A stretch of 64,000 bases of DNA, taken from positions 21,638,001-21,702,000 of the forward strand of contig CP158635.1 in assembly GCA_050273025.1 (NCBI GenBank), given 5' to 3'. The notes under the pieces were generated by a model. The model made no database searches. It worked only from the letters and a program-made list of their open reading frames with translations, and was not told the DNA's origin. This document shows positions 12,001 to 64,000 of the stretch, piece by piece. Position 1 is the stretch's first letter; every line of letters begins with the position of its first letter. The DNA comes from Cenococcum geophilum. Lineage: Eukaryota. The position numbers and the translations under genes are program-made.

Positions 12001-15000
12001 TATATACTTGCTAGGAAACGCTACTACTACTCTAGGTTATACTAAACTGCATCCTATACCTGCTTTGCAGTAGCATTAGCCCTAATATCCATTATGCGTA
12101 GTAGTGTTTAGAAATAGGTATTAGTGAAATTACTAGGTCCTAATATGTTATAGCAAAGCGGGGTTTCGCAAATAGAGAATTTTAAGTTATTTAAGTGTCT
12201 TAGCTAACGCCACCAGAATTACCCCTGCTAGTTTAGTTTTATAAAACTGGTCCTCCCGCCTTCCCTAGGATTATACTAACTATTTAGCTAAACGCCGCCA
12301 GTTCTAGCAGCCGCGCCAGACGCAGCCTACCTAATACTTCTACTACGTTACGGAATATGCAGAAGAACTATATAAAGTTATAATTTAGGCAGCCCCTAGC
12401 TAATACATTAGATCTTTCTCTTACTAATAGCCCTAGGGTTACTGCGAGGAGTTAAAGCGCCAGAAGTTGCTTACTATAGCCAATCCGCTATATTATAGAA
12501 GCGAGAGGAGCTAGGGCTCCTGGGTATAATAGCTAAGTCAACGATAATAGTTACATTTTCCCCAGTTATTAAAAGGATAATTTATTTCGTAAATTATAAA
12601 ACCTCTCCAACGCTCCGTATAAGCTAGAAAAATAATTTGCTTATAGAGTAAAAGATTACCTTTATACTATTTTCCAATACCAAAAATAGAACTCTTAATG
12701 AAGTATAATTATAAAAATGGCCAATGCGAGGCCTATATACCTATATTATATATTAGTAAACTAATAGCTAAAATCGGGGGAGGCTTTATATATTAAAATT
12801 AACCTTACGGCCTTAATTTCCGTCTTAGTAGTTTACGCTACTATCCTAATTATGCCTATATACCCGCAACCTAATAGCTAAGCCAGAAATGCGTGTTTAG
12901 AGCGATCCTGTTAAAGCTATAATCGTAAATACCAACTAAGAATAATACTAGCGCAATAAAGCCAGACGCGCTAGACCTTAAAATCTTTAACTAACATTTT
13001 AAAGAGGTATATTACCTAAAAGAAAATAATAAGTAAGCAAAAAAGGGCACTATATAACGCTATTTCAATAATAAAAGGGTTTAGATACCATAAAAACTAA
13101 GTAGTTGCGATGAGGAAGAGGGCAGAGTAAGTAAATCTGCTAACGGGAGCTATAATCCCAAATATCTAAGAAAATAGAAAAGAATGAGGATGAAAGTGGG
13201 AGTAGGGTAGCTTATAACGATATTGTTTCTTAGAAATAAGGTAGGCTATATAAACGCTATATTATTACCGCTAAATAACTTAACCAAGCGGCTTCCTAAT
13301 AAGTTATCGCCCTAACCTTAGGCGATAAATAACTAAAGAAGGCACTTAGGGCGTATGGGGGTCAGTTACCTTCTCCATTTTATTACTAAATTAAGTATTT
13401 AATACTATTTATAATTTTGGGTGATGCTAAATAGAAAAAGAGAAGAGTATAAATCTTTTATTTTAGCTAGTAACTTACAAGTTTTCTATATCCTTATACC
13501 CCGAATTAATCTTCGTCTCCTAGCTGTACGCTTATAGTGCGGCGCTATGGTTTACAAGCACTAAAATTATATAGATACTCTACCGGACCTTCTATTAACT
13601 TGGTCTTAATATTAAACCTAAAGTGTCTTAAAATAGGCTGGCTTACTAGTATAGTTAATACCTATATCTTCTTTCCCTCTTTATCCTACTTTTCTACTAC
13701 TATTTTAATAAGTATTCTGCCTAGACCAGACTTCTGATAAGACTCGTGTATAATAAAAGTAGAGATTTTTATTAGGCAATCTTAGGAGTACCTAGCGCAA
13801 AATTAGCCACGCCCCTAGGCCTATAACTTAAGAACCATACTAATGCCCCTTAGCGTGAGTTTGTTCCTTATAAAACTCAATATTATCTAAGTTTTCATCT
13901 CAACGCAGATTTTCGATACCCTTTAGGAGGCTGTTGAAAATACCTTCGTTTTATTAGCTTGCAAACTTATACTAAATAGATAGTGGTACTATATAAATGT
14001 CCCCCTTTAGCAGTGGCTAAGGTTCTAGGCCACTTATAATAAGAACGCTAGAAATTACAGTTTTGCTAATTAACACCGTCAAATCTTGCCTGGCCTATGG
14101 CGACTTAACTACCTTAGCTTTGTTTTTATTGTATAGGCTTTCTATACTATAAACCCTTAAGATAAAACTAAGAAACGCATTAATAAGATTAACTACGTAG
14201 GAGTCGTATATATTTATTAGGAATTCTTTAAAATATAGTCTCCGAATCTTAAAAGATAGGGAGGTTTTAAAAGCTAAAATAATAATATAGGTTGCTTAAA
14301 ATACGTCTATATGCGTAAGCAGTCGGATTTAATAAGTAGCCATCGCAGAAGAGAGTAAAGAAAAGTAAAATTAGTAGCAGAAGGAGGAATACCCTTAAAA
14401 GATATATGGAGAAGTTACAATATTAATTAGACAAGACTATTGGGACCGTCGCGGATATAATAGCTATAGCCCCTACTCCGACTAATAGAATTAAGTTCTT
14501 TAGTATTACTATTCCACCCTTCCTTTAGATAGCATCTAGTAAAGGATTCCGTACGGCAGGTATAGCTAAGAATTATTACCGCACGTATTATGCTAATTTA
14601 TCGTTATGCATTTTGTGTCTGCTTAGTATTACCTAATACTTAACCTTTAGGAACGTATATATATAAGCCTAACGCTACCAAATGCTATTAGATGTAAAGA
14701 TAAGGTGCTAAGGCAAAAGATATAGTTTCCTAAGCTAGATACAAATGACTACTATTAAGGGTCTATAGTGGATAGACGCGGCCTCCACTTTAAAACATTC
14801 TCTATACCTTTTTCTTTAATATAGTCCTCTAAGCCTTAGAGATTCCTCTAAATTATAGTCTGCAATTTAATTAGAATAGATACCGTATAAAAAATATTAA
14901 ACGTACTTAAAACGTATATGCGTTGGAGTGGTTATATATTAATTTAAGGAAAGTAGTTGAATAGATAATATCCTATACTTATTGCCCTCTAGTTTTTCTA

Positions 15001-42495: not shown

Positions 42496-43522
42496 AATTC
42501 TGCCAGAACTGAGTCCTATTCTGCCTGGTTGGGGTAGAAAAGCTCCGCGCGGGCACTTTTATCCTTATCGATTGCGATATTTTATGCATTTTCTATTGGA
42601 TAAAGGATATTTTATGCTCGCTTATTTGCATTATCCAAAACAACCCTGGTCTAGGTTGATGGTAGTCCAGCATTTGCTATATGCGGTGGGAAGCGTGTAC
42701 AGGTATCAGCCACATCGGCTTCGGTATCTTATCTAGAAGGTAGTGTAAACGGCCCACTTCGCTATACTGGGTGAGGGGCAGTGGGGTATATGCGCACGCC
42801 TTCGGGTGGATGGGAGAATATGTGTAACTCCCAAGGCATTTTTACTACTTTATGAAGCAAATAGTGCTCCGGAGACTGTCATGAGGTTCCGTATGGGTTT
42901 ATGACGCATTGCTGTTAAAATAGCACTTGAATAAAAGGAAGCCAAATCAATCGATTTTGAGGTGTTGTGATAAGAACATAAGTGAAAATAAGAGTAGAAT
43001 ACTATTATGCCACGTATGATGAGGCTGTGCGGGACCGTCAGAGGGGCAAACTGATGGATCACCTGATGGACATGACTTTAAAGGGTCGTACGTAGGGGGC
43101 CATTTTTGGCTTAATCATAAAACAAGTGGTGATGTCGGAATGTTGGTGAGCCTTTGAATATGGATTTGCGGTTTGGGTACTGTACTGTAACTCGCTTCCA
43201 GATAAGAGCCTCCCACATCAGACGATCATTATACAAGTTGATAAATCTATTATGAAAGCAGCTTGTGATTGGTGATCGTCTGGGACTGAGATAACCCAGA
43301 GGGTCGTTTGTGCCGAAACCCAAGAATCTCCAAGCTAGTTGTGTTACATTCATAAGGTAACATCGCAGCCTCTTCCAAGCCTTGATGTCATTAGCTTACT
43401 AAAATTCAGGTATTAACTAGCATCCCTCGGCTAGACGCTCCGCCTATCGCTCCCTCTACCACACTCCTCGATATCGTTGTACGGCCTCCTCGATCCTCGT
43501 CCCCATCCCCAACGGCCTTACC

Positions 43523-43905
43523 TTACCCGCTAGCTGCCCACGTCACACCTCCCACAGCCTGACTATATCTTGGCATGGCGACGAGCGGGCTGAGGTTGAG
43601 CAGGTCAATCAAACGTGGTCTCGCCTTGCTCACTACATCAACAAGCGAGTGAAGAAAGTCTTCCCCAGCGATCTGGATCTCAGTGGCAAGACCCTGGACT
43701 TCTGAGGCACTAGGGATAGGCACTGGAGCCTAGCCGCAAGAGAGCAGCAACCGCAGCGCTGTCATAAAACCTTGGGTCGGCTTGAGTCTGTGCGCGAGAA
43801 TGAGGTAGTGGTAAGGGCCGTTGCTCAGAGCAAGCATATTATCCTCATGACTCAGATCCTCAAGGTCGAGATCCTCGAGCGGTAATTCAGCGTTGGAATG
43901 GAGAC
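43523..43905 (-). pseudogene. Possible gene fragment of unknown family
   Basis: ORFs 43730-44041 and 43523-43723 are in one frame separated by a single TAG. The peptide is protein-like, but no motif was recognised. Confidence 0.25.
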
Positions 43906-43911
43906 AGCGAT

Positions 43912-44440
43912 GTGGGGAGGCGCGGTCGCCCGCCAGCAAATGCGGCAAACTATCAGCCGCCGCTGAACGAGGTCCCTGAGATCCTGAAAGAGAACACCTT
44001 ACACTCTGGGATAGACGTAGCGAGCCGTATGAGCATCTCACGGGAGAAGGGGATCGCTAGCAACCTGGCATTTCTGTCAGCCACCTCAGACGATTGCCTG
44101 AAGGTGATGGCTGTGTGCGTTGAAGAATACCGCAACGGAGAAGGAACCACGATTCGGATAGCATTAAACACTGGATATCTCTCAGAAGTCAAAAACGGAT
44201 TCATGATGTTTGCTAAAGTCTTCTGACCCGTAGAGAATCCAAACCGGAGGACATAACGGTTCTTCTTCGACAGGTTGTAGTCCTAGACCTCTATCGAATT
44301 TTATCACAACTGCGATCACGACGTGCTAAGAGAACCAGAAAGGCTACTGAAAAACCACCGCTCATACTCAACTGAACGAAGTTGTTCACGACAAGTCCGT
44401 AAGGCCTATATCAGGGTTCACGGAAAGCAGCTGGCAGGCA
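43912..44440 (+). pseudogene. Truncated N-terminal fragment resembling fungal OTT_1508-like deaminase-family proteins
   Basis: SISREKGIASNLAFLSATSDDCLKVMAVCVEE..G.G.TIRIALNTG.L.EVK.GF, then a stop, then in another frame LLRQVVVLDLYRILSQLRSRRAKR. No catalytic C-terminus is visible. Confidence 0.5.
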
Positions 44441-45004
44441 CATCCCACCTCTATCTTTTCGCCTTCCTCTCCTTCATCCAGAAAGAGGTCGACGAAATCA
44501 TCCGCGACTACTGACTCCGGGGCGAGCGACTCATCACAATCCTTCACGCCGCCCATATGAGACGCAACGCGTCTTCAACTTCCTTCTCAGCGATGAGCGC
44601 TTCAAACCAAACCTATCCTTACTTGACGGCGAGCGCCTCCTCACAATCCTTCACGCCACGCATATGAAGTTCGCGCAATATTCGCTAGCAAGAGATATGA
44701 GGGATAGAATCTCAAGGGATAGGGAGCAGAAGGAGAAGCTGGTTGGAAAGAGGATAATTATATCGTTAAGCTCGCCATAGAGGTTGTTAGGCAGGAGAGG
44801 GGCAGTGGGGTGGTTGGGTTGCTGGCGTAGGAGCGAGCTGGCGTTGCACAGCCATACCAACTTTGAAATCATTGAAATGGTACGGAATGGACTGACTGCT
44901 CTACACACTGAGTTAAAGAATATCTCAAAATCTTAAACACGGTATAGCTCTCCAGGGACGTTTCTTTGGCAGGTTCAAGTTTATTAACGGGCAGGGGAAA
45001 GACT

Positions 45005-46321
45005 TTATCTCTCAATTCCCCAAGGTCGCTGTCCAGCAATTTCAACATCTCTTGTGCTCGTGTCCAAATCTATCGTCTCTCTATCAATCCTAACCTCATC
45101 GCTGGTCACTAAGTGTAGTTCCTTCTGTGTCACTCCGGCAGTAGACCTGTAACCTCGATCGGTAAGTTCGACAGCGCCATCTTGGCCACTGCGGGAAGAT
45201 GCTCGCTGGTAGCCATTTGCATTGGGGAGAGCATTATTGGTTTGGCCGGAGCTGCGTTCGGGGAGGGAAGCCATGAAGCTAGGGATGAGTTTTCGGATGA
45301 GAGGTTTAAGGGCGGGGACGGCCGCGCAAATCAGACCTATGTTGACCTCTACGGATGCCCAAATGTTGATGTCCCATGCAGCCCCTACAAAAACAGTCAG
45401 GAAAGAGTAGAATAGGGAGGCGGAGAGGTGGGATCTCACATGTTGGATCCCTACTCTTAATTGTCTGCCCAGTACGAATCGCCCGGACTAATGACGCTGT
45501 GATGGCCAGCCAACCTAGCGAGATGATTACATACAATGAGATCTTCTGTGCTCGAGCTATCCGCAGCGGGAAAATTCTCCAGAGAGCAAAACCCATTAAG
45601 AGTAAGTCCACAACAACGCTTAATGTGGCAGATCCGTAGACGAAGAAAGCAATATTCCTCGCGAAGGAGGGACCAGTACACCTACCCCCTTCTGGAGACC
45701 AGAATGCACCTCCGAGATCACAGGCAAAGAAGCCCTCGATGAACAGTACCACAGTAAAAACGGTCATGAAAGCCATCAGAACGACGGAGGAGATCTTACT
45801 TAATGAATCTTGGAATATCCGGCGGTAGAAGAGACAGATGGAGAGCTTCGTAGTTGTAAGGACAACTATATGAACAATTCGAACGCAAAACCCTAGGACC
45901 TGGATGATGTGCGCATTTGTGAACGGGACATACACGACATGCTGTCCAACTCCGTGTCTGGCAAGGGTACAGATGAGACCTGTCAGGAAGATCCCCAATG
46001 CCTTTAGATTATTAGTGCATTTTCCCATCCCTCTAGGAAGTACATCTCAAGCTTACTGCTGATATTGCCAGAAATGTGTCATCCCATCCCAGATTGCGGG
46101 TCAATGCAAGTCGTGTATACAGTCGACCAAGTATGATAGCAGTAGCACAGAATGTCGTAACAATTGTCCCAATCATCAGTCCTGTCGAGCGCGAATTCAC
46201 CTAAAAGTAAAAATAAGAATTGATCAATCTCTCTCGGAAGCACACATACCATTGAACCAAAGTTGCCTCCTCCAGGAGGCGGAGGCGGATGTGAAGGTGG
46301 AGGTGGTGGGGAAGTCGACAT
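45005..46321 (-). CDS. PTH11-like integral membrane protein (fungal rhodopsin domain, no CFEM), ~385 aa, 4 exons: 46321-46250, 46200-46057, 46001-45440, 45384-45005
   Basis: Three GT-AG introns (49, 55 and 55 nt) join an open frame with the family motifs GRLYTR...LGWDD, HGVGQH, KLSICLFYRRIF, D....P..I...QK..L, SLVR, DPTW, IWASVEVNIGLICAAVPALKPL. No RIP damage. Confidence 0.92.
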
Positions 46322-46654
46322 TTTTTCCTGTCCCACAACTTTTCATTTCTGTGGGCAGGGTTATCGGCATCGTATCGCTTGATCCCGTAGGTAGGGTAGA
46401 GGACGCGTCCTTACTTGTATGCGAAATGTTCTCAGATTCATGCGACGATTTCTGTTGGATGCACATGCGTCCCTTTTTGTGGCAGAACAGACTTTCGTAT
46501 TAGGGGCTTTGGGCACTCTTGCCTGGGTTAGCATACTGCAGGCACCCTAGCTAGCGTTGTTTTTTTTAGCAAGCCTCACCAGAACGCGTCAATATCACGA
46601 TGCTGATAAAATACTATAAAAGACCACCACTGAAAACACACACACATATATATA

Positions 46655-46870
46655 TATTAAGGAAGTTAGGCAAAAGGTTATAATATATAACGTTATAACT
46701 ATAAGTTTCTACTCTTCCTCTATTAATAGCCTCGGAGCCTCTAAGCTAAAGATATACAACGTTTTTCAGGCAGTAAAGAGACAATATTTTACTAATAATT
46801 AAATAACTAAATAGACAGCAATAATATTAAAGCTTTTTAATTAACTATGCTAGATATTATCGGCTTCCTA
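46655..46870. repeat. Small AT-rich RIP-like repeat relic next to a (CA)n(TA)n microsatellite
   Basis: Abrupt TpA-rich patch within otherwise balanced DNA; identity unknown. Confidence 0.35.
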
Positions 46871-49699
46871 GCTCTATTGCTGCTGTTTACCGTAATATCA
46901 AGCGTTAAAAACGTCAATAAGGCGCCGGCACCCTTACTGCCGAGCAACCACACTAACTGGAGGCTTCAACACCAAGCTCTATACGGTATAGAGCCTCTAG
47001 ATTGACTTATGAGGCGTGCATATACGAAAAGTCTTTGAAAATTTGCCACACAAAGGGATCCTTAGTGAAAATCAATCGGCCGCTTAATGTCCTAGACGAG
47101 CCGCAGTGAAACACCTGCAATTACAACTTGGGTGGCAGAAATAGTGCGTTGGTTTCCGGGCCACAAAGGCTGAGACAAAACGTGATTCATTCAGTATAAA
47201 AATCTTTATAGATACTAAAGGCCTAATATATCTTATTAATACTTTTCAAGTATGAGGTTTCTATCAAAATAACAATATAACTTCTGGAGACTTTTGGTGT
47301 GGTTTTTGCCCTGCGCACACTCTTATGGCCACACATTTATGATATCGGTGGGACAGTGGCTGGCTGAAAAAATATCGTATGATAAACTAGCAATAAACAG
47401 CGGTCTCCAAAAGCCACAAGACCCGAGAGTTTTAGGCTTACCCGACCGAAAAGTGCCGGTCTTTCACGAACTATAGCCACGTGCATGACCAGCTTCCACC
47501 CGCCTTTCCGCAGGTTCCGAATTCGGTACACATTCGGCTTCGCCTGGTTGCCACTAGCTGTATATAGCAATCGTAGCGAACGCCTATGCTTGGCTATAAG
47601 AACGCGATCGGTCTCTATAGTGCCGTGATCTTTATTAAATATCATGAGGTTTCTACCCATACAATATTGCTAAACTTCATCGTCCACTATAGAGAGACAG
47701 CGTTATATTCGCGTCTTAGCATAGTCATAAGGAAAAGAGGGAGAACGAGGAAGCATGCACCAGGCAAGTTCTAAATTACCTTAATTCAATTCCCCTAACC
47801 AACCAGAATAATTCTCCAAGGCAACCAAAATAGCCCGTGCATACAGCCATAAGCGTTCGCTACAATTACTATGTGCGATTGAGCAAGCCCGCGTGCCGTA
47901 GCGAAATAAACTTTTACTAGAGGAGGGGGGGTGGAAGCTGGTCATGCACATAGTAAAAAGCAAATATTCCTTACTTCTTCAATGGCAACTTTCCATGTCA
48001 GATTGTAACACAGGCAAGAAGCTCAGCCAGCTCACCGTAAAAATAAATGCTGGGTCGAAAGGGCCACGCGTTCAAACAACCAAAACCAGTCTCTTATCAT
48101 GTTGATATGCATTTCTTGAGGCGACGTCACTTGGCATGTCAAAGCCCAGTCAGTGAGCCAGCTAATGAATCCGGGGCCTCGGGGAACAGGGAACAATAAG
48201 CCATCTCCAAATCCGGGGCACCCGCCCGTACGTAAAAGTGGCTGAGACACCCTTAGCGCTGAGAATTTTCCAGTATGCATCGCTCTAACGGGACTGACTC
48301 GAGGACCACACAGTTCCATTCAGTGGCATCGACTGTTGCAACATTTCACAGTGATTTGAGGAAATTGGAAGGAATCATTTTTAGAGGGGGTTCAGATTGA
48401 GACTATGGATCCATTGATGCATCCAATTGCAACGACGTTTGTATCCCTTTATCTTATTCATCCAAGCTCGATGACAGTGCGAGGATTTAAAGAGTCGAAG
48501 AATAAATGATTTGTCATGAGTTGAAATGCAAGAGAACGTTTGTTCCTCGACAGTTGCGCATCTTTCTAAACTCGCGACTCGATGCAGACTATTTCCGAAA
48601 GCTTCCTTCAACATGAAATACACCCTCTCGTCAATTCCGGTGGTTAGCGTGTTTTATTAACTTTCCCTTAAACAGCAAAAATACCAAAACTTCCCCTAAC
48701 AAAAGGCCGTGCAGACGTGGCTGCGCTAACCACCGAAATTGATGAGAGGGTGTAGACGGATGCCCGGGAGGATCTAATGCCACGTGCTCTAGCTCCAGAA
48801 CGCCACTCAGCCACCGAAGACTGCTTACCCCGCTAGTGCTGACATTCCCTCGGCTTGTGCCTACGACATAGGCATTAGACCGCAAAACCACAGAGCACTT
48901 CTTAGCCATGAATCCTGAAATGTCTCGCTTGGTCGGTTGTCGATCGGAATATCAAAGAATGAGGACTTGTCTATTGAATGTGGCTCTAGGGCCTCTATAT
49001 ATACATAAGGAAGGTGTAGGCAATAGGAAGAAAAAGGGGGAGGGGTAGGTGACTGAGTCAAAGGGGTAGGTAACTGAGTCAGGGTGGTAAGACAAGGGCG
49101 GCAGACAAACGCCAACAATCATCACGGTCTTCCAAGCTATTTAGTCGGTTGCTGACATCAAATGGTGCAAATACAATGCATTGCAATGAGGGTTTTGCAC
49201 TGAGCTTCCAATGAATAGCGAGGTTGAGCGACACAGCTACCAAAGCAGACTCGCTCGTTCAATCTTCCATGAGAAACACTTCATTCTTTAGAGTATCTAA
49301 GCGAAATGCAAGAGCAGAAATTTCATTATTCTAACAGTTGTCGTCGAATTCGTTCAGCTTCCCTCAAATTAAGTCAGCCAACATGAGCAATCAGGTTCCA
49401 TTACAAGCAAGGCTCATGACCCAGACTGTCGTCGATAAAGTATCTTAATTACTACTATCCCATAATATACAAACTACTTTTCCGGTACATGAGTGGTACA
49501 ATGGCACATGCCCAGCTGTCACCAAGTCTGGATTGTCCCCCATCAAACTCGAGCCACTTTATCCTAAAATTTGCGAGTTTGGAATATCACCGCCGGAAGA
49601 AATGAATTTCGAGGAACCGTCACAACTGACCGAACCCACATTAATTGCCAGTGATGAACTTGAACCACTCCAACACACTCCCTTGGAGTTACCCAATGC

Positions 49700-50300
49700 T
49701 GCGATATGACTTATCCATGTTGAGCCAGATGTGTTTCTGGAGGATGCGGTTTCAATTGCCTTGTTCGAAGAACCACTCGATTCCGCACCTTCATATGCCG
49801 CACTCTCGTACAGTTGGGGCTCTCCGATTTCAGATCATGAGGTATCTACAATGGCCAGCGTCTCCGCATCACGAAACCCCCTCACCACGCTTTCAAAAGA
49901 CATCGACAACACAGATACGAGTATCTATAACTTGTGTGGGCTGATGCCATCTACATTAACCAATCTAACTGATCCGAAGTCACTCATAGGTAGGATCATT
50001 CCGAGGCTGACAGAGTGTATGTAGACCTTGGTGACACGAGTCTGACTCTTTCAAAGAGCCCGATTCGATGAGATCTTTGGGAATGGTAAGCCTCCATCTC
50101 GCCCCACTATTCGGCGGCAGTAGCCGCAGACTGTGAGCAATTCGAGTATCTATTCACATGTCACGCTGATTCACAAAAGCTATGCTCGACGAGACTACCA
50201 GTGAAAATCAAAACATGCTGATGGGCCTACCATAGGGTTATGTCAGCAAATTCTATGAGACTGCCGAGGTCCGATTGCTGGAGAACTATGGGTTGGTGAA
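49700..50300 (+). pseudogene. HET-domain (heterokaryon incompatibility) gene remnant
   Basis: I*LIHVEP...AVSIALFEEPLDSAPSYAALSYSWGSP matches the IRLL..L.P...Y.ALSY.WG lead-in of HET domains. It has an in-frame TGA and lacks a downstream W.DA.CI.Q core. Confidence 0.55.
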
Positions 50301-50816
50301 TCTTCACTGTATGATGAGTGTTCACATGGCTACGTTTTGGTTCATGAAGCAGAAGAATTCGTCGCAACAGGGATTAAAAGTGGCCTTGTGTCACACGAAG
50401 GGTAAACTTACATATTCCTATAAGACAAAGAATTAGTACATATGGATGAGGTGTAGTGTTGCAGGAGTCTTCAATAGTTGATCGCAAAGAGTAATACGAA
50501 GGGTAGATGCAGGAACAATTACTTGTCGTTAGAGGGAGTTTCTGAGCGGGTGTATGATATCCGATTTAGGGCACGTTCGATAACTATCACATATCGGGGG
50601 GGGTCATTTGGCGCGGTTACGACCCGGGTTAATACGAGGTTAGGGCCACCCCTGCTGATAACGCGCCCGAACCCCGCACGAGGTCGCGCAGCGACCGCCC
50701 CCGAGTACCTTCGCACGCGATTTTGGGCGAAAAGGTATATAATATGTGTTGGATCGGTACCTCTGGACGGTCGCGTAATGTTGCTCTGAATTTACAACAC
50801 CTAAACGCGTTCCATT

Positions 50817-51139
50817 CCTATATTAAGGCGTCTCAGTTACTGTAATGCAGTCCTATATTAAGACGTCTCGGTTGCTATAGTATAGTCCTATATTAAGGCG
50901 TCTCAGTTAATACAGTGCAGTCCTATATTAAGGCGTTTTGGTTACTATAGTGCAGTTATATATTAAGGCGTTTCGGTTACTGCAGTGCAGTCCTATATTG
51001 AGACGTCTTGGTCACTAGTAGTCCTATATCGAGACGTCTTGGTTACTATAGTGCAGTCATACGTTAAGGCGTCTTAGTCACTATAATGCAGTCATATATA
51101 GAGGCAGTTATATATTAAGGTGTCTTAGTTACTGCAGTA
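50817..51139. repeat. 35-bp tandem repeat (~9 copies, CCTATATTAAGGCGTCTCAGTTACTGTAATGCAGT-like) just downstream of the Crypton stop codon, present in every unit
   Basis: CCTATATT at 50817, 50852 and onward; same block at +3555, +7110 and +10665. Confidence 0.9.
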
Positions 51140-51149
51140 AAATAACTAT

Positions 51150-53731
51150 TTAGATATTCTTATAAAGCTAATCTAAAGAACGCGGACCTTATAGCTGTTC
51201 TAGCTGGTTAACAGCCTATCTCTTATCTCTTGCCGTACCGTCTTCTACGCGCTATCTAACATCCTTAATTATCCTACGGCGACGGCTGTAGAATATAGCC
51301 TTACCGTTAACCCGCCAGCGCGCCCCCCAGCAGCAATTAAGAGCTTTAATTAACGGCCCACCTGCTAGCCCTAAAGTCCACTTAGTCCAGAGCTGGAACA
51401 CCAAATTACCGCCCCAAAGTATCTTATATTTTCTTAGCAGTGCCTATGGGTTAAGAATAAATGGAAGAGGTTGAGCGTTAGCCTGCGGCAGCTGCGGTAG
51501 CTGCGGCGGGGGTATAGTAGAAGCTTGCGGCAGCTGCTATAGGGGTATAGTAGACGTTATGGTAGACAGCTGAGTAGGCTCTACGGCGGTAGACAGTTAA
51601 GGACCCCTTAGTATCTCTATAGGGGTTAAATATATAAGAGAGGGTTTATCCAAAGACGGAATCTAGCTATTAACGCGTTTAGGAACGGACGCGGGTACGG
51701 GCATAAGTACGGGTATAGGCATAGGTATAGATGCGGGCATAGGTACGGGTATAGGGCCGTCCAAAGACGGACGTATGGACTCCATAGGCCCTATCTAAAT
51801 ACCCATCTTCCCTTGCTAAATCTATATAGGTGCGAATAATGCTAATAACCTTTCTATCTCGCCAAGGCGTTCTAAAATCGTCTGCATGCGTAATTAAACC
51901 CCCTTTATCTCTAAGATCGCGGCCTTATATCTTAGCTTAGCTATGGCCTTATAGGCGGGCCAGTATTTCCGCATTATTATCTCATCTGGCGTAACTACGC
52001 TAGCTAGCGAGCTTTCTACCCGCGTGGTAAACCTTTAGTACTCCTTATAGCTAAAAAGGGGATTCTTCTATAGAGGGTAGAGCGGGAACTGCTTGCGTAG
52101 GATTACTAAGTCCTGCAATAGGATTACCCTAAGCGCGCGGAGGAGGCGTAGAAATCCTAAGCCTGTAAGGTTAAGCCGTACGACCTTATTATCTGCCCTC
52201 TCTAGGTAGTAGGTCTCTATACATTTTAGCCAGACGTCAGTCTTAGGCCATATCTTTAAACAGAGTACCTCCTCCGGCACCTCCCGTGCGCGGGAAAGAA
52301 AGTAGCCCTTTCCTTCCTTTAGGAAGCCAGCGATTAACCGTATAAACGCACGGGGTAGATAGCTAAGGTAGGCTCCTGTTATCGCGTCCGTATTCCAGTA
52401 TCCGGCCCATCTAATTTAGGTCTCCTTAACGCCGCTAAGCTTAGCGTGCCGGACGCTCTACTTATAGGCGCTATAGGTCTTCTCTTTTAAATAAATCCCT
52501 ACCCCCTAGAATATCTTTTTATTCTATTTAAACTGCGTATAATAGCTTAACGGCCGTTGCGGTACTTTAATACTGCCAGAAAAGACGTATAGGCCGTAGT
52601 AGTCCTCTAGCTACCGAAAGGATGGGAAGCTCTTAGCGCCGTCCTTACCCTAGCGGTTAAAGAAGTAAAAGGCTATTATAGAGAGAGGGCAGAGGATAGG
52701 GTCAGTATTACGCATACAGCCCATATACTCAACCTTGCCGTACTAATTCTGCTTCCCCTATATTATTAATATAATTATATACGGCGCTAACTTATCTAGT
52801 TTTAGCCCTTTGTTCTCTAGTTTAATAAGGATAAGGTTAGCAAGCTAAATGTCCCATCTACTTTTACCCTAAGTAATAGTAGTATGGCCTAAGGAACGGG
52901 TTAGAAAACGGCAGCCGTATAGACTAAATAGGGTATATATAAACCTAATAAATACTCAGCTGTAGTTTAAAGGTAAAACTTAATTAAGCCTAGCTTCTTA
53001 GAGCCCGTCTCCTAGCACTAAGTAATTGCCTTTTTAAGCCCTTTAACGTCGTAACTACTAGTAATTATAAATAGGCCTTAATTAATAAAGTTAACGCGTT
53101 AAATCCGGTCCTTATTACGGCGGACGCTATCTAATACCACCAAGAGCTTTACCCCCCGCAGTGGCTGCGAGGTTTTACCTTCCGACTACTATATATAGAG
53201 CTTAGTAATAGCGGAGACGTAGCTATTTATAACTAAGTATCGGACTATCTCGTTAAATAGGGCGTCTAGGGCCTCCTCGTCCTATATCTCTTCCTCCTTT
53301 ATAGCTTCCTCCCCTACAGCTGCGGCTGCCCCTACGGCTGCCTTTCCCCCTAGCGGCCCTCCTACGGTCGTCTTCTGCCTCTTCTTCACCCGCTTACTAT
53401 CTTTCTATATCTCTTTCCGTTTTAACTTCTGTTTTTAATAGCCAGCGGCCCGCAATTCTTAATTAATAACTTACTGCTCTAAAAATAAGTAAAGCTTATC
53501 TTCCGTTACCTAGGCGCCATCCGTATTGCCTTCTAGTCTTACGTACTAGTCTTCCCACTCTTTCTACTTTAGCTTATACGCCCTTATAGTATTCTTTAAG
53601 CGCTAGGCCTTATAAATATCCTACAGCCGTGCTATCTGGGCCTTAAATTCGTTCTAAAGGCTATAGGGGAAGGAGGCTAGGGGGGCTTCCGTAGTGGACC
53701 GTAGGGTAAGAAGATTCTTAAGAGACTCCAT
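51150..53731 (-). pseudogene. Crypton tyrosine recombinase (NDC10-II-like) with C-terminal GCR1_C domain, RIP-degenerated; copies at 54705-57286, 58260-60841 and 61815->64000
   Basis: The A/B consensus gives R.KNT.RAY.PKQKEWEDW..RL.GNTDGARVTEDKLCLFL, SYVSAIT.LY.WQ, GKQN.HGKVEYMGCMR..DPILCPLS..AFYFFNR, EKTHSARKQS.RHA, IRRAGRWNTDA.TGAYLSYLPRAF.R.IAGF, LRVILLQD.VI, and LWT.WTLGLAGGP.I.AL.RCWGARWR...FYSRRRRII. Confidence 0.9.
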
Positions 53732-54138
53732 ATCTGTAAGAGGTAAGGGGGCAAACGCGTAAGCGCGGTATGGGTAAATAAAGCTACCGAACGCGTAAAT
53801 ATTAATAAAGAAGGAGAAGAAGAGGGCTCTATATTATAGAATTAGAATTATAGTAGGCCTTTCTATATAAAATTAGAAGCCCCGCGCGAGCTAGGAGCTA
53901 GCGCGGGCATAAGAACAGCAGAGGGTTGGAAAATGGGATTGTTGAGGCAATGGTAAGGTTAATGGCGCGCGACGAGGACCTCCATACTAACCCAGTACTA
54001 ACCTAGGCCTCAAAAACGCGTCCGAAAAGTAGGGGCCACCACTAAAGGGGGGGGGTAATATTTAAACGATATGTCGAAGACCTTAGGGGGTCGTGCGTAA
54101 CCTAAGGTTATGCTAAGCTTAACCCGGACCTCCGATAC

Positions 54139-57100
54139 CTATTATATATCGGGGGGGGTCATTTAGCGCGGTTACAACCCGGGTTAATACGAGGTTAGGG
54201 CCACCCCTACTAATAACGCGCCTGAACCCTATACGAGGTCGCGTAGCGACCGCCCCCAAGTACCTTCGTACGCGATTTTAGGCGAAAAGGTATATAATAT
54301 GTATTAGATCGGTACCTCTAGACGGTCGCATAATATTGCTCTAAATTTATAACACCTAAACGCGTTCCATTCCTATATTAAGGCGTCTCAGTTACTATAA
54401 TATAGTCCTATATTAAGACGTCTTAGTTGCTATAGTATAGTCCTATATTAAGGCGTCTTAGTTAATATAGTGTAGTCCTATATTAAGGCGTTTTAGTTAC
54501 TATAGTACAGTTATATATTAAGGCGTCTTGGTCACTACAGTGCAGTCCTATATTAAGACGTCTTGGTCACTAGTAGTCCTATATTAAGACGTCTTGGTTA
54601 CTGTAGTGCAGTCATACATTAAGGCGTCTTAGTTACTATAGTGTAGTTATATATAGAGGCAGTTATATATTAAGGTGTCTTAGTTACTACAGTAAAATAA
54701 CTATTTAGATATTCTTATAAAGCCAATCTAAAAAACGCGGACCTCGTAGCTGTTCTAGCTAGTTAATAGCCTGTCTCTCGTCTTTTACCATACCGTCTTC
54801 TACGCGCCGTCTAACATCCTTAATTATTCTACGGCGACGGCTGTAGAATATAGCCTCGCCGTTAACCCGCCAGCGCGCCCCCTAGCAGCGATTAAGAGCT
54901 TTAATTAACGGCCTACCTGCTAGCCCTAAAGTCTACTTAGTCTAGAGCTAGAACACCAAATTACCGCCCTAAAGTATCTTATATTTCCTTAGTAGTGCCT
55001 ACAGGTTAAGAATAAATAGAAGAGGTTAAGCGTTAGCCTGTGGTAGCTGCGGCAGCTATAGCGGGGGTATAGTAGAAGCTTGCGGCAGCTGCTATAGGGG
55101 TATAGTAGACGTTATAGTAGACAGCTAAGTAGGCTCTACGGCGGTAGACAGTTAAGGACCCCTTAGTATCTCTATAGGGGTTGGATATATAGGAAAGGGT
55201 TTATCTAAAGACGGAATCTGGCTATTAACGCGTTTAGGAACGGATGCGGGTATAAGTATAGGTACGGGTGTAGGTATAGGTATGGGTGTGGGCATAGGTA
55301 CGGGTATAGAGCCGTCTAAAGACGGATATATGGACTCCGTAGGCCCTATCTAGATACCTATCTTCCCTTGCTAGATCTATATAGGTGCGAATAATGCTAA
55401 TAACCTTTCTATCTCGCTAAGGCGTTCTAAGATCGTCTATACGCGTAATTAAACCCCCTTTATCTCTAAGATTGCGGCCTCGTATTTTAGCTTAGCTACG
55501 GCCTTATAGGCGGGCTAGTATTTCCGCATTATTATCTCGTCCGGCGTAACTACGCTAGCTAGCGAGCTTTCTACCTACGTGGTAAACCTCTAGTACTCCT
55601 TATAGCCAAAGAGGGGGTCCTTTTATAGAGGGTGGAGCGGGAATTACTTGCGTAGGATTACTAAGTCCTATAATAGGATTACCCTAAGCGCGTGGAGGAG
55701 GCGTAGAAATCCTAAGCCCGTAAGGTTAAGCCATACAACCTTATTATCTACCCTCTTTAGATAATAGGTCTCTATACGTTTTAGCTAAACATTAGTCTTA
55801 GGCTATATCTTTAAACAGAGTACTTTCTCCGGCACCTCCCGTACGCGGGAAAAAAAGTAGCCCTTTCCTTTCTTTAGGAAGCTGGCGATTAACCACATAA
55901 ACGCATGGGGTAGATAGCTGAGGTAGGCTCCTATTATCGCGTCCGTATTCCAGCATCCGGCCCGTCTAATTTAGGTCTCCTTAACGCTGCTAAGCTTAGT
56001 ATACTAGACGCTCTGCTTACGGGCGCTATAGGTCTTCTCTTTTAAATAAATCCCTACCCCCTAGAATATCTTTTTATTCCATTTAAACTGCGTATAATAG
56101 CTTAACGGCCGTTACGGTACTTTAATACTGCTAGGGAAGATATATAGGCCGTAATAGTCCTCTAGCTGCCAAAAGAATGGGAAGCTCTTAGCGCCGTCCT
56201 TACCCTAGCGGTTAAAGAAGTAGAAGGCTATTATAGAGAGAGGGTAGAGGATAGGGTTAGTATTACGCATATAGCCCATATACTTAACCTTACCGTGCTA
56301 ATTCTACTTCCCCTATATTATTAACATAATTATATACGGCGCTAACTTATCTAGTTTTAGCCCTTCGTTCTCTAGTTTAATAAGGATAAGGTTAGCAAGC
56401 TAAACGTCCCGTCTACTTTTACCCTAGGTAACGGTAGTATAGTCTAAGGAACGGGTTAGAAAACGGTAGCTATATGGACTAGATAGGGTATATATAAACC
56501 TAATAAATGCTTAGCTATAGTTTAAAGGTAAGACTTAATTAAGCCTAGCTTCTTAGAGCCCGTCTCCTAGCACTAAGTAATTGCCTTTTTAAGCCCTTTA
56601 ATATCGTAACCACCAGTAATTATAAATAGGCCTCAATTAATAAAGTTAACGCGTCAAATTCGGTCCTTGTTGCGGCGGATGCTGTCTAGTACCACCGAGA
56701 GCTTTACCCCCCGTAGCGGCTGCGAGGTCTTACCTTCTAACTGCCATACATAGAGCTTAGTAATAGCGGAGATGTAGCTATTTATAACTAAGTATTGGAC
56801 TGTCTCGTTAAATAGGGCGTCTAGGGCCTCCTCGTCCCATATCTCTTCCTCCTTTATAGCTTCCTCCCCTATAGCTGCGGCTGCCCCTGCGGCTGCCTTT
56901 CCCCCTAGCGGCCCTCCTGCGGTTATCTTCTGCCTCTTCTTTACCCGCTTGCCATCTTTCCATATCTCTTTCTATTTTAACTTCCGTTTTTAATAGCCAG
57001 CGGCCCGCGATTCTTAATTAATAACTTACTGCTCTAAAAATAAGCAAAGCTTATCTTCCGTTACCCGGGCGCCGTCCGTATTGCCTTCTAGTCTCGCGTA

Positions 57101-57693
57101 CCAGTCTTCCCACTCTTTCTGCTTTGGCTTGTACGCCCTTATAGTATTCTTCGAGCGCTAGGCCTTATAAATATCCTACAGCCGTGCTATCTGGGCCTTA
57201 AATTTATTCTGGAGGCTATAGGGGAAGGAGGCTAGGGGGGCTTCCGTAGTAGACCGTAGGGTAAGAAGATTCTTAAGAGACTCTATATCCGCAAGAGGTA
57301 AGGGGGCAAACGCGTAAGCGCGGCATGGGTAAATAAAGCTACCGAACGCGTAAATATTAATAAAGAAGGAGAAGAAGAGGGCTCTATATTATAGAATTAG
57401 AATTATAGCAGGCCTTTCTATATAAAATTAGAAGCCCCGCGCGAGCTAGGAGCCAGCGCGGGCACAAGAACAGCAGAGGGTTAGAAAATGGGATTGTCGA
57501 GGCGACGGTGAGGTCAATGGCGCGCGACGAGGACCTCTATACTAACCCAGTACTAACCTAGGCCTCAAAAACGCGTCCGAAAAGTAGGGGCCACCACCAA
57601 AGGGGGGGGGTGATATTTGAACGATATGTTGAAGACCTTGGGGGGTCGTGCGTAACCCGAGGTTATGCCAAGCTTAACCCGGACCTCCGATAC
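54139..57693 (-). mobile_element. Crypton unit 2, variant B
   Basis: Collinear with unit 1 at +3555; the differences seen are C>T/G>A transitions. Confidence 0.9.
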
Positions 57694-57707
57694 CTATCAC
57701 ATATCGG
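57687..57707. other. Candidate recombination core at the unit junction: CCGATA-CCTATCACA-TATCGG
   Basis: Perfect 6-bp inverted arms around a 9-bp spacer. RIP-altered copies at 54132-54152 and 61242-61262; host-flank version TCGATA-ACTATCACA-TATCGG at 50577-50597. Confidence 0.7.
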
Positions 57708-60700
57708 GGGGGGTCATTTGGCGCGGTTACGACCCGGGTTAATACGAGGTTAGGGCCACCCCTGCTGATAACGCGCCCGAACCCCGCACGAGGTCGCGCA
57801 GCGACCGCCCCCGAGTACCTTCGCACGCGATTTTGGGCGAAAAGGTATATAATATGTGTTGGATCGGTACCTCTGGACGGTCGCGTAATGTTGCTCTGAA
57901 TTTACAACACCTAAACGCGTTCCATTCCTATATTAAGGCGTCTCAGTTACTGTAATGCAGTCCTATATTAAGACGTCTCGGTTGCTATAGTATAGTCCTA
58001 TATTAAGGCGTCTCAGTTAATACAGTGCAGTCCTATATTAAGGCGTTTTGGTTACTATAGTGCAGTTATATATTAAGGCGTTTCGGTTACTGCAGTGCAG
58101 TCCTATATTGAGACGTCTTGGTCACTAGTAGTCCTATATCGAGACGTCTTGGTTACTATAGTGCAGTCATACGTTAAGGCGTCTTAGTCACTATAATGCA
58201 GTCATATATAGAGGCAGTTATATATTAAGGTGTCTTAGTTACTGCAGTAAAATAACTATTTAGATATTCTTATAAAGCTAATCTAAAGAACGCGGACCTT
58301 ATAGCTGTTCTAGCTGGTTAACAGCCTATCTCTTATCTCTTGCCGTACCGTCTTCTACGCGCTATCTAACATCCTTAATTATCCTACGGCGACGGCTGTA
58401 GAATATAGCCTTACCGTTAACCCGCCAGCGCGCCCCCCAGCAGCAATTAAGAGCTTTAATTAACGGCCCACCTGCTAGCCCTAAAGTCCACTTAGTCCAG
58501 AGCTGGAACACCAAATTACCGCCCCAAAGTATCTTATATTTTCTTAGCAGTGCCTATGGGTTAAGAATAAATGGAAGAGGTTGAGCGTTAGCCTGCGGCA
58601 GCTGCGGTAGCTGCGGCGGGGGTATAGTAGAAGCTTGCGGCAGCTGCTATAGGGGTATAGTAGACGTTATGGTAGACAGCTGAGTAGGCTCTACGGCGGT
58701 AGACAGTTAAGGACCCCTTAGTATCTCTATAGGGGTTAAATATATAAGAGAGGGTTTATCCAAAGACGGAATCTAGCTATTAACGCGTTTAGGAACGGAC
58801 GCGGGTACGGGCATAAGTACGGGTATAGGCATAGGTATAGATGCGGGCATAGGTACGGGTATAGGGCCGTCCAAAGACGGACGTATGGACTCCATAGGCC
58901 CTATCTAAATACCCATCTTCCCTTGCTAAATCTATATAGGTGCGAATAATGCTAATAACCTTTCTATCTCGCCAAGGCGTTCTAAAATCGTCTGCATGCG
59001 TAATTAAACCCCCTTTATCTCTAAGATCGCGGCCTTATATCTTAGCTTAGCTATGGCCTTATAGGCGGGCCAGTATTTCCGCATTATTATCTCATCTGGC
59101 GTAACTACGCTAGCTAGCGAGCTTTCTACCCGCGTGGTAAACCTTTAGTACTCCTTATAGCTAAAAAGGGGATTCTTCTATAGAGGGTAGAGCGGGAACT
59201 GCTTGCGTAGGATTACTAAGTCCTGCAATAGGATTACCCTAAGCGCGCGGAGGAGGCGTAGAAATCCTAAGCCTGTAAGGTTAAGCCGTACGACCTTATT
59301 ATCTGCCCTCTCTAGGTAGTAGGTCTCTATACATTTTAGCCAGACGTCAGTCTTAGGCCATATCTTTAAACAGAGTACCTCCTCCGGCACCTCCCGTGCG
59401 CGGGAAAGAAAGTAGCCCTTTCCTTCCTTTAGGAAGCCAGCGATTAACCGTATAAACGCACGGGGTAGATAGCTAAGGTAGGCTCCTGTTATCGCGTCCG
59501 TATTCCAGTATCCGGCCCATCTAATTTAGGTCTCCTTAACGCCGCTAAGCTTAGCGTGCCGGACGCTCTACTTATAGGCGCTATAGGTCTTCTCTTTTAA
59601 ATAAATCCCTACCCCCTAGAATATCTTTTTATTCTATTTAAACTGCGTATAATAGCTTAACGGCCGTTGCGGTACTTTAATACTGCCAGAAAAGACGTAT
59701 AGGCCGTAGTAGTCCTCTAGCTACCGAAAGGATGGGAAGCTCTTAGCGCCGTCCTTACCCTAGCGGTTAAAGAAGTAAAAGGCTATTATAGAGAGAGGGC
59801 AGAGGATAGGGTCAGTATTACGCATACAGCCCATATACTCAACCTTGCCGTACTAATTCTGCTTCCCCTATATTATTAATATAATTATATACGGCGCTAA
59901 CTTATCTAGTTTTAGCCCTTTGTTCTCTAGTTTAATAAGGATAAGGTTAGCAAGCTAAATGTCCCATCTACTTTTACCCTAAGTAATAGTAGTATGGCCT
60001 AAGGAACGGGTTAGAAAACGGCAGCCGTATAGACTAAATAGGGTATATATAAACCTAATAAATACTCAGCTGTAGTTTAAAGGTAAAACTTAATTAAGCC
60101 TAGCTTCTTAGAGCCCGTCTCCTAGCACTAAGTAATTGCCTTTTTAAGCCCTTTAACGTCGTAACTACTAGTAATTATAAATAGGCCTTAATTAATAAAG
60201 TTAACGCGTTAAATCCGGTCCTTATTACGGCGGACGCTATCTAATACCACCAAGAGCTTTACCCCCCGCAGTGGCTGCGAGGTTTTACCTTCCGACTACT
60301 ATATATAGAGCTTAGTAATAGCGGAGACGTAGCTATTTATAACTAAGTATCGGACTATCTCGTTAAATAGGGCGTCTAGGGCCTCCTCGTCCTATATCTC
60401 TTCCTCCTTTATAGCTTCCTCCCCTACAGCTGCGGCTGCCCCTACGGCTGCCTTTCCCCCTAGCGGCCCTCCTACGGTCGTCTTCTGCCTCTTCTTCACC
60501 CGCTTACTATCTTTCTATATCTCTTTCCGTTTTAACTTCTGTTTTTAATAGCCAGCGGCCCGCAATTCTTAATTAATAACTTACTGCTCTAAAAATAAGT
60601 AAAGCTTATCTTCCGTTACCTAGGCGCCATCCGTATTGCCTTCTAGTCTTACGTACTAGTCTTCCCACTCTTTCTACTTTAGCTTATACGCCCTTATAGT

Positions 60701-61248
60701 ATTCTTTAAGCGCTAGGCCTTATAAATATCCTACAGCCGTGCTATCTGGGCCTTAAATTCGTTCTAAAGGCTATAGGGGAAGGAGGCTAGGGGGGCTTCC
60801 GTAGTGGACCGTAGGGTAAGAAGATTCTTAAGAGACTCCATATCTGTAAGAGGTAAGGGGGCAAACGCGTAAGCGCGGTATGGGTAAATAAAGCTACCGA
60901 ACGCGTAAATATTAATAAAGAAGGAGAAGAAGAGGGCTCTATATTATAGAATTAGAATTATAGTAGGCCTTTCTATATAAAATTAGAAGCCCCGCGCGAG
61001 CTAGGAGCTAGCGCGGGCATAAGAACAGCAGAGGGTTGGAAAATGGGATTGTTGAGGCAATGGTAAGGTTAATGGCGCGCGACGAGGACCTCCATACTAA
61101 CCCAGTACTAACCTAGGCCTCAAAAACGCGTCCGAAAAGTAGGGGCCACCACTAAAGGGGGGGGGTAATATTTAAACGATATGTCGAAGACCTTAGGGGG
61201 TCGTGCGTAACCTAAGGTTATGCTAAGCTTAACCCGGACCTCCGATAC
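57694..61248 (-). mobile_element. Crypton unit 3, variant A (appears identical to unit 1)
   Basis: Offset of 7110 from unit 1; identical 70-aa ORFs at 52068 and 59178. Confidence 0.9.
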
Positions 61249-64000
61249 CTATTATATATCGGGGGGGGTCATTTAGCGCGGTTACAACCCGGGTTAATAC
61301 GAGGTTAGGGCCACCCCTACTAATAACGCGCCTGAACCCTATACGAGGTCGCGTAGCGACCGCCCCCAAGTACCTTCGTACGCGATTTTAGGCGAAAAGG
61401 TATATAATATGTATTAGATCGGTACCTCTAGACGGTCGCATAATATTGCTCTAAATTTATAACACCTAAACGCGTTCCATTCCTATATTAAGGCGTCTCA
61501 GTTACTATAATATAGTCCTATATTAAGACGTCTTAGTTGCTATAGTATAGTCCTATATTAAGGCGTCTTAGTTAATATAGTGTAGTCCTATATTAAGGCG
61601 TTTTAGTTACTATAGTACAGTTATATATTAAGGCGTCTTGGTCACTACAGTGCAGTCCTATATTAAGACGTCTTGGTCACTAGTAGTCCTATATTAAGAC
61701 GTCTTGGTTACTGTAGTGCAGTCATACATTAAGGCGTCTTAGTTACTATAGTGTAGTTATATATAGAGGCAGTTATATATTAAGGTGTCTTAGTTACTAC
61801 AGTAAAATAACTATTTAGATATTCTTATAAAGCCAATCTAAAAAACGCGGACCTCGTAGCTGTTCTAGCTAGTTAATAGCCTGTCTCTCGTCTTTTACCA
61901 TACCGTCTTCTACGCGCCGTCTAACATCCTTAATTATTCTACGGCGACGGCTGTAGAATATAGCCTCGCCGTTAACCCGCCAGCGCGCCCCCTAGCAGCG
62001 ATTAAGAGCTTTAATTAACGGCCTACCTGCTAGCCCTAAAGTCTACTTAGTCTAGAGCTAGAACACCAAATTACCGCCCTAAAGTATCTTATATTTCCTT
62101 AGTAGTGCCTACAGGTTAAGAATAAATAGAAGAGGTTAAGCGTTAGCCTGTGGTAGCTGCGGCAGCTATAGCGGGGGTATAGTAGAAGCTTGCGGCAGCT
62201 GCTATAGGGGTATAGTAGACGTTATAGTAGACAGCTAAGTAGGCTCTACGGCGGTAGACAGTTAAGGACCCCTTAGTATCTCTATAGGGGTTGGATATAT
62301 AGGAAAGGGTTTATCTAAAGACGGAATCTGGCTATTAACGCGTTTAGGAACGGATGCGGGTATAAGTATAGGTACGGGTGTAGGTATAGGTATGGGTGTG
62401 GGCATAGGTACGGGTATAGAGCCGTCTAAAGACGGATATATGGACTCCGTAGGCCCTATCTAGATACCTATCTTCCCTTGCTAGATCTATATAGGTGCGA
62501 ATAATGCTAATAACCTTTCTATCTCGCTAAGGCGTTCTAAGATCGTCTATACGCGTAATTAAACCCCCTTTATCTCTAAGATTGCGGCCTCGTATTTTAG
62601 CTTAGCTACGGCCTTATAGGCGGGCTAGTATTTCCGCATTATTATCTCGTCCGGCGTAACTACGCTAGCTAGCGAGCTTTCTACCTACGTGGTAAACCTC
62701 TAGTACTCCTTATAGCCAAAGAGGGGGTCCTTTTATAGAGGGTGGAGCGGGAATTACTTGCGTAGGATTACTAAGTCCTATAATAGGATTACCCTAAGCG
62801 CGTGGAGGAGGCGTAGAAATCCTAAGCCCGTAAGGTTAAGCCATACAACCTTATTATCTACCCTCTTTAGATAATAGGTCTCTATACGTTTTAGCTAAAC
62901 ATTAGTCTTAGGCTATATCTTTAAACAGAGTACTTTCTCCGGCACCTCCCGTACGCGGGAAAAAAAGTAGCCCTTTCCTTTCTTTAGGAAGCTGGCGATT
63001 AACCACATAAACGCATGGGGTAGATAGCTGAGGTAGGCTCCTATTATCGCGTCCGTATTCCAGCATCCGGCCCGTCTAATTTAGGTCTCCTTAACGCTGC
63101 TAAGCTTAGTATACTAGACGCTCTGCTTACGGGCGCTATAGGTCTTCTCTTTTAAATAAATCCCTACCCCCTAGAATATCTTTTTATTCCATTTAAACTG
63201 CGTATAATAGCTTAACGGCCGTTACGGTACTTTAATACTGCTAGGGAAGATATATAGGCCGTAATAGTCCTCTAGCTGCCAAAAGAATGGGAAGCTCTTA
63301 GCGCCGTCCTTACCCTAGCGGTTAAAGAAGTAGAAGGCTATTATAGAGAGAGGGTAGAGGATAGGGTTAGTATTACGCATATAGCCCATATACTTAACCT
63401 TACCGTGCTAATTCTACTTCCCCTATATTATTAACATAATTATATACGGCGCTAACTTATCTAGTTTTAGCCCTTCGTTCTCTAGTTTAATAAGGATAAG
63501 GTTAGCAAGCTAAACGTCCCGTCTACTTTTACCCTAGGTAACGGTAGTATAGTCTAAGGAACGGGTTAGAAAACGGTAGCTATATGGACTAGATAGGGTA
63601 TATATAAACCTAATAAATGCTTAGCTATAGTTTAAAGGTAAGACTTAATTAAGCCTAGCTTCTTAGAGCCCGTCTCCTAGCACTAAGTAATTGCCTTTTT
63701 AAGCCCTTTAATATCGTAACCACCAGTAATTATAAATAGGCCTCAATTAATAAAGTTAACGCGTCAAATTCGGTCCTTGTTGCGGCGGATGCTGTCTAGT
63801 ACCACCGAGAGCTTTACCCCCCGTAGCGGCTGCGAGGTCTTACCTTCTAACTGCCATACATAGAGCTTAGTAATAGCGGAGATGTAGCTATTTATAACTA
63901 AGTATTGGACTGTCTCGTTAAATAGGGCGTCTAGGGCCTCCTCGTCCCATATCTCTTCCTCCTTTATAGCTTCCTCCCCTATAGCTGCGGCTGCCCCTGC
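61249..64000 (-). mobile_element. Crypton unit 4, variant B (appears identical to unit 2), cut by the window edge
   Basis: Offset of 7110 from unit 2, with the same diagnostic substitutions. Confidence 0.9.

Follow-up and report, generated by a model that had tools for sequence, protein, structure and literature searches.

The closest described counterparts of the element reported here are CryptonF families of Eurotiomycetes, which belong to the tyrosine-recombinase DNA transposons. As presented in the passages of Kojima and Jurka (2011; PMC3212892) that treat them, these elements are 3-4.6 kb long, encode one protein in which a tyrosine-recombinase-derived domain is joined to GCR1_C (a pairing stated there to mark CryptonF elements), and lack long terminal repeats. 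Their termini carry 6-bp direct repeats, given in Additional file 1 of that study as ATAACT for CryptonF-2_ACap, TAACTA for CryptonF-1_CI, and TAACTA/TACCTA for CryptonF-1_MC. CryptonF-1_cRei from Chlamydomonas reinhardtii is active, ends in CACCG, and targets CAYCG, with one free position; according to the portions of PMC9977147 devoted to it, the element fits the Goodwin model, in which a short terminal sequence exchanges with a near-identical target. The locus described here is a head-to-tail array in Cenococcum geophilum, lying within a stretch of 64,000 nucleotides (contig CP158635.1 of assembly GCA_050273025.1, positions 21,638,001 to 21,702,000), hereafter termed the window. The array has a period of 3,555 bases and spans position 50573 to the end of the window in the order A-B-A-B. 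Its 3,555-bp unit belongs by sequence to the CryptonF group and has been inactivated by repeat-induced point mutation (RIP). We consider it likely that the junction between neighboring units represents the joined element ends and that exchange occurs in or next to a motif of the published type, ATA-N-CT(A), rather than in the heptanucleotide CTATCAC.

The identity of the unit emerged from a six-frame Pfam search of unit A2 with stops read as X. One of the six frames, on the minus strand, matched NDC10_II with an E value of 6.8e-34 (profile positions 35-316 of 317) and, in that same frame, GCR1_C with an E value of 2.5e-9, in agreement with an initial annotation of the locus that had called the unit a Crypton. 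NDC10_II, a domesticated version, is the Pfam model for this tyrosine-recombinase-type domain. No other Pfam family, neither a reverse transcriptase nor a DDE transposase, was found in the six frames of A2 at E values up to 1. Long terminal repeats are absent, no long repeat being common to both ends of a solo copy of the element found elsewhere (L002, introduced below). The unit thus resembles the Eurotiomycete families by description, not by comparison of element sequences, and all copies at this locus have been wrecked by RIP.

The recombinase gene is dead in the array copies, with 42 stops within 843 codons in A2 and 46 in B. Even with C or G put back wherever A and B differ by a transition, 26 of the 843 codons remain stops, and the earlier proposal that the recombinase could be rebuilt from the A/B consensus finds no support. 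A protein search returned two relatives among 7,999 scored candidates: P0002, an intact relative of 778 aa that is 61% identical, contains NDC10_II (E value 6e-56) and GCR1_C (E value 1.8e-17), and P0003 is a second relative of 703 aa. P0002 would be a better starting point than the array copies, which cannot give a working enzyme. Judging by the motif layout, the catalytic tetrad R-H-R-Y presumably lies at TRGES, HSAR, and GAYLSY of P0002; at these candidate places A2 reads stop, Y, Y, Y, which fits an inactivated member. The contig encoding P0002 (3,644 bases) is near the unit length observed here and could represent a circle or else a collapsed array. When an alignment of P0002 with P0003 was used to look for further relatives, genome_contigs yielded 57 pattern matches and viral_contigs 226, but tblastn confirmed none of them, and phmmer retrieved no solved structure matching P0002 at E values up to 0.01.

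Where the tail of one unit meets the head of the next, the sequence reads CCGATA-CCTATCACA-TATCGG. Allowing up to three mismatches, this 21-mer occurs at 50577, 54132, 57687, and 61242, always 3,555 bases apart, and was encountered in none of 100 shuffles; the junction letters and coordinates initially reported are therefore correct. The form at 50577, the left border of the array, is TCGATAACTATCACATATCGG. The ends of a Crypton are difficult to delimit; at a tandem junction, their joined sequence can be read off directly. A metagenome scan with a 30-letter pattern from the element head yielded two contigs, L001 and L002, that carry further copies. The copy in L002 is a solo one, 84% alike to unit positions 8 to 3553 (362 transitions and 44 transversions, the latter among 3,317 aligned sites within the element). 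Its likeness to the unit begins after ...AAATATCT and ends after ...CCGATACCT; the copy in L001, which is cut at about unit position 1271, begins at the same base. In window orientation, the left border of L002 reads ...GCATTGTAAATAT-CT-ATCACATATCGGGGGGGG and its right border ...CCCAGACCTCCGATAC-CT-GGCTGCATTAGG (also given as ...CCTCCGATAC-CT-GGCTGCATT), that is, CCGATAC-CT-GGCTG, and the left border of L001 reads ...GACCAGAATAT-CT-ATCAC. Four borders fall on the same 2-3 bases: the left one of the array, the two of L002, and the left one of L001. Because the ends at other loci coincide with the array junction, the junction very likely marks where the element ends meet and has the sequence expected of an excised circle, as the initial annotation had surmised.

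When the junction and the three left borders are aligned, only ATA, CT, and the element head remain as invariant columns. The motif ATA-N-CT is found in all three left borders and in the tail, in the form ATACCT in the element, ATAACT at the left border of the array, and ATATCT at the left borders of L001 and L002; L002 accordingly has ATATCT on its left and ATACCT on its right. Short terminal direct repeats (4-6 bp) that are alike in all copies, a trait of CryptonF, are thus present as ATA-N-CT. The letters at 50580-50586 (ATAACTA) and 57690-57696 (ATACCTA) are those of the Eurotiomycete repeats listed in the tabulated part of PMC3212892, and the short terminal repeat published for fungal CryptonF is thereby confirmed in a new family. 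The pattern also recalls CryptonF-1_cRei as described in parts of PMC9977147, where a short donor motif at one terminus meets a target with one free position (here ATACCT and ATA-N-CT, respectively), although the motif itself differs and insertions, clean excisions, and rearrangements have been observed for the algal element. Since ATA-N-CT equals the published CryptonF repeats and is a short motif of the cRei type, the crossover would take place at a site of a known kind, and the claim of a compact new lox-like integration system gives way to a junction motif that is already in the literature. Judged by the aligned borders, the crossover probably precedes CTATCAC by 3-4 bases and falls at the boundary between left arm and spacer.

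Several observations weigh against this reading. Few independent borders are available: L001 and L002 have left flanks that share homology across about 1.6 kb of repeat-rich DNA and are counted as one event for that reason; the last 55-65 bases before the head do not align between the two. The flanks of L002 may derive from different targets, the left being repeat-rich and the right non-RIPed with 51% GC. Position 4 of the 6-mer differs between the tail and every left border, which confines strict identity to ATA and CT. One of the contigs that leave the unit near its end (X6 record 24, see below) may represent the L002 locus again, and neither a circle nor an excision footprint nor an active copy was observed. 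Lastly, one contig from each of two other runs (X6 and X7) parts from the window sequence at 50568/50569, 17 nt short of the head, which a simple ATAACT empty site would not predict.

The homologous head-side flanks themselves (L002 4042-6069 and L001 2291-4008, on their plus strands) are built of short tandem repeats, among them a 12-mer present 31 times, a 20-mer present 6-12 times, CAGG present 32 times, and GCAAATTGC-like words. They could represent a favored insertion site or an extended version of the element, or they may have been duplicated as a block. An open reading frame in the right flank of L002 matched no Pfam family.

Table 1. Features of the Crypton array and its left border (window coordinates)
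Feature	Position	Strand	Description
Unit A	50586..54140	-	ATCACATATCGG... at start, ...CCTCCGATACCT at end
Unit B	54141..57695	-	sister of A, RIP-diverged
Unit A2	57696..61250	-	exact repeat of A
Unit B2	61251..64000	-	incomplete; window ends inside it
Dead Crypton recombinase gene, A2	58263..60841	-	exon 1 60841-60053, 50-nt intron, exon 2 60002-58263 (tblastn with P0002)
Dead Crypton recombinase gene, other units	51153-53731 (A), 54708-57286 (B), 61818-63961 (B2, cut)	-	
35-bp tandem repeat, 8.2 copies	57926..58209 (A2); also 50816-51099, 54371-54654, 61481-61764	.	between gene end and element end
Left flank	49082..50568	.	single copy, non-RIPed, common to other strains; decayed HET-like reading-frame pieces
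17-nt flank piece	50569..50585	+	GGGCACGTTCGATAACT; adjoins first unit; final six bases ATAACT (50580-50585) represent the crossover motif at this border
Intact tail-to-head junction	57687..57707	+	CCGATACCTATCACATATCGG, the sole exact form; ATACCT 57690-57695; arms 57687-57692 and 57702-57707
A-to-B junction	54132..54152, again 61242-61262	+	CCTATTATA; RIP-type change of both CpA of TCACA to TpA

The array itself records a sequence of events (Table 1). Units A and A2 are identical at 3,552 of 3,555 positions in the register that starts at 50573, the three mismatches (50575, 50577, and 50583) all falling at the left border, and B and B2 agree at 2,763 of 2,763 positions. A and B share only 3,267 of 3,555 positions, and 286 of their 288 differences are transitions, mainly at CpA/TpG (143) and CpG (98); TpA/ApT is 1.8-1.9 in the units and 0.67 in the flank at 49082-50568. 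Differences that are nearly all transitions, most of them at these dinucleotides, indicate that mutation of the RIP type drove A apart from B, and the identity of A with A2 and of B with B2, while A and B differ, indicates that the A-B pair was copied after RIP, with zero later changes. The result is a higher-order repeat, in which units 8% apart form a 7,110-bp pair that was duplicated post-RIP, or else the assembly repeats the pair. A blastn search (E values up to 0.01) found no further copy of A2 in 1-50572.

RIP of the Neurospora type has a strong CpA bias. Over 54128-61237, changes at CpG are almost as frequent in the A/B comparison as those at CpA/TpG, unlike that pattern.

On the basis of the shared ATA-N-CT and the shared end points, we infer a mechanism in which a circle carrying the junction sequence would recombine with a target in or beside ATA-N-CT(A). 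Either recombination of a circle with a resident copy or integration of a multimeric circle would produce the array; RIP would then have separated A from B by 8%, and the A-B pair would have been duplicated later without change. The joint expected in such a circle is ...CCGATACCTATCAC... or an equivalent. Recombination between a circle and a chromosomal site is likewise the expected route in lox, FRT, and phage att systems. Tandem arrays of bacterial integrative elements such as Salmonella genomic island 1 (PMC2297512), formed by site-specific integration beside a resident copy, also consist of head-to-tail copies whose junction is the circle junction; that bacterial system has defined att sites, whereas the route to the array described here is a proposed one.

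What the left border reveals about the target depends on the 17 nt that separate the first unit from the single-copy flank. These letters agree with the element tail at 5 of the last 6 bases and at 6 of the 11 bases upstream. Of 101,086 background 17-mers taken from both strands of 1-50560, the first of these scores (5/6) is attained by 892 and the two together (5/6 and 6/11) by only 11, so the likeness of this half-site to the tail, which the initial annotation had stressed, stands above chance. Its description as unique host DNA is doubtful, however. The X6 and X7 contigs cover 49066-50568. Over these roughly 1,500 nt (about 1,500 nt), the X6 contig shows 2 differences and 2 gaps relative to the window, after which 833 unlike letters follow; the X7 contig has 34 differences up to 50568, followed by 123 unlike letters. 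The departure of both contigs at this point means that 50569-50585 is missing from those alleles, and the piece is also absent from the unit junction, which casts doubt on a local origin of the supposed host half-site. X5 is uninformative here, since none of its listed contigs reaches the border and the longest piece ends at 50438. Two explanations offer themselves: private DNA of the X6 and X7 strains at 50568/50569, or arrival of the array together with a scrap of older flank.

The second option corresponds to an alternative that we regard as a serious possibility, if a little short of probable, namely that a rearrangement joined the array to 50568/50569 and brought along 17 nt of older L002-type flank. 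The half-site would then be silent on this locus as a target; the crossover motif proposed above is compatible with such a history. Besides the two departing contigs, this alternative is favored by the letters that open the inserted side, the 8-mer GGGCACGT, which recur 23 nt before the head in L002, and by a short 119-base piece resembling the flank of L001 and L002 at window positions 47838-47946. It has to contend with the remaining 9 nt, which show 2 transversions and a 6-nt gap when set against the L002 flank, where the element interior shows only 44 transversions in 3,317 sites, with the absence of GGGCACGT from L001, and with the chance that X6 and X7 hold an insertion of their own beyond 50568.

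The abundance of the element sets it apart from described Cryptons. Summed contig depth over the unit (50586-54300) is several hundred times that of 49082-50439, the stretch taken as single copy by its depth, in all four runs (X1, X5, X6, and X7). In X1, most bins of the unit reach about 46,000-108,000 and two bins lie near 8,000-12,500, as compared with 83.5 in the single-copy stretch; 10,928 pieces were placed, most of them 90-95% alike. Summed depth is not equal to copy number, but values of this size hint strongly at a very large family of RIP-diverged copies, hundreds in number. Among the loose ends listed, none lies at the element ends, which is no evidence that most copies are in tandem. 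This is unusual for Cryptons, which the relevant part of a curation guide describes as generally low in copy number (PMC8969392). The Eurotiomycete CryptonF families have 4-19 copies, with no tandem arrangement in the passages of PMC3212892 that describe them, whereas the units here lie head to tail at high summed depth. None of the titles or abstract openings in the literature searched deals with tandem Crypton arrays, which is weak evidence that such arrays are unpublished. The combination of tandem arrays with an apparent copy number of several hundred is unusual, and, if confirmed on a long-read assembly, it would bear on how Cryptons multiply.

A bolder extension is that the element behaves in this root-associated ascomycete as a satellite-like Crypton, with circles re-entering at resident junctions to build several hundred units (1-3 Mb) per genome, the inverted repeat and eight 35-bp repeats together acting as an attP-like site, and the target supplying only ATA-N-CT. 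We regard this as unlikely as it stands; if true, it would explain how Cryptons gain copies despite excision. The 35-bp repeats are situated 230-520 bases inside the element end and are retained in L001 and L002 in 3-3.8 copies. They may be accessory binding sites. Each 35-bp unit contains CCTAT- and ACTAT-like words, similar to the crossover motif.

The inverted repeat at the junction had led the initial annotation to a different site, a lox/FRT-like core with arms CC(TCC)GATA and TATCGG(GGG) around a 9-bp spacer, exchange within the 7-bp overlap CTATCAC, and targets that need the CGATA arm as well as the overlap. The inverted repeat is indeed there: CCGATA/TATCGG is a perfect 6-bp inverted repeat (6/6, or 8/9 if extended), its letters are the same in all copies, and tyrosine recombinases usually employ inverted arms around 6-8 bp, as stated in a passage of PMC3212892. 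In units B and A2, however, a 6/6 repeat with a spacer of 2-14 occurs at 11% of positions and an 8/9 repeat at 4% (5% and 0.4%, respectively, in the flank at 43001-50560). The inverted repeat taken alone is only weakly above chance, because equally good ones occur at 4-11% of element positions. CCGATA/TATCGG is a real subterminal feature, off-center relative to the crossover, that may serve as a candidate recombinase-binding repeat.

The proposed overlap and target arms fare worse. After CCGATAC, the right border of L002 continues with CTGGCTG, so CTATCAC does not follow the tail there and is not shared by both borders. The flank beyond agrees with the head at only 6 of 17 positions and lacks the TATCG-like arm that had been expected to the right of the tail. 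Upstream of ATA-N-CT, the match to the tail is 6/11 at the left border of the array (p 0.034), a value in favor of an arm, and falls to 2/11 in L002 and 1/11 in L001. Moreover, ATA of CGATA belongs to the crossover motif, so the flank "arm" consists mostly of that motif plus two further matches, and the terminal repeats published for related elements lie 3-4 bases to the left of CTATCAC. A 6,303-base contig (X1 record 7) leaves the unit at 54138 and a 1,344-base contig (X6 record 24) at 54140, both before CTATCAC becomes readable. Compared with lox, FRT, and phage att, the junction has in common a short inverted repeat near the crossover, but the motif common to tail and target is found at an arm edge rather than in mid-spacer, its candidate arms are only 6-9 bp, and its targets are without arms. 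We accordingly hold exchange within CTATCAC to be improbable; recombinase arms are not required in targets at the borders compared here. The faintest candidate, a recombinase-independent array formed by segmental duplication, unequal crossing-over, or replication slippage with the junction as an arbitrary breakpoint, can claim the exact copying of A-B into A2-B2 as proof that ordinary duplication acted at least once, but is hardly credible for a junction that falls within 2-3 bases of the ends of a solo and a truncated copy elsewhere and coincides with the published terminal repeat of related elements.

The surroundings of the array are of mixed character. Depth in the bins at 49276-50439 is 83.5 in X1, 6.2 in X5, 10.5 in X6, and 8.6 in X7, with values hundreds of times higher on both sides. 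To the left, a second repeat family occupies 48500-49081, with a summed depth of about 130 times single copy in X1; each of the four runs shows loose ends there, at 48968 and 49024. Within the single-copy flank, 49700-50250 contains YAALSYSWG in one frame and LVWADAIYINQ in another, with stops between; by their motifs, these pieces look like a decayed HET-domain gene, and the HET-like open reading frame at 49449-50024 matched no Pfam family. Positions 1-43000 contain a few internal repeats and no Crypton copies; they are AT-rich (29-43% GC per 1-kb window, mostly 30-38%) and RIP-like, with a TpA/ApT of 1.61. About 4.5 kb to the left of the array, an open reading frame of 246 aa on the minus strand (45306-46046) encodes a fungal rhodopsin domain (PF20684, E value 1.2e-29) and looks like an ordinary host gene.

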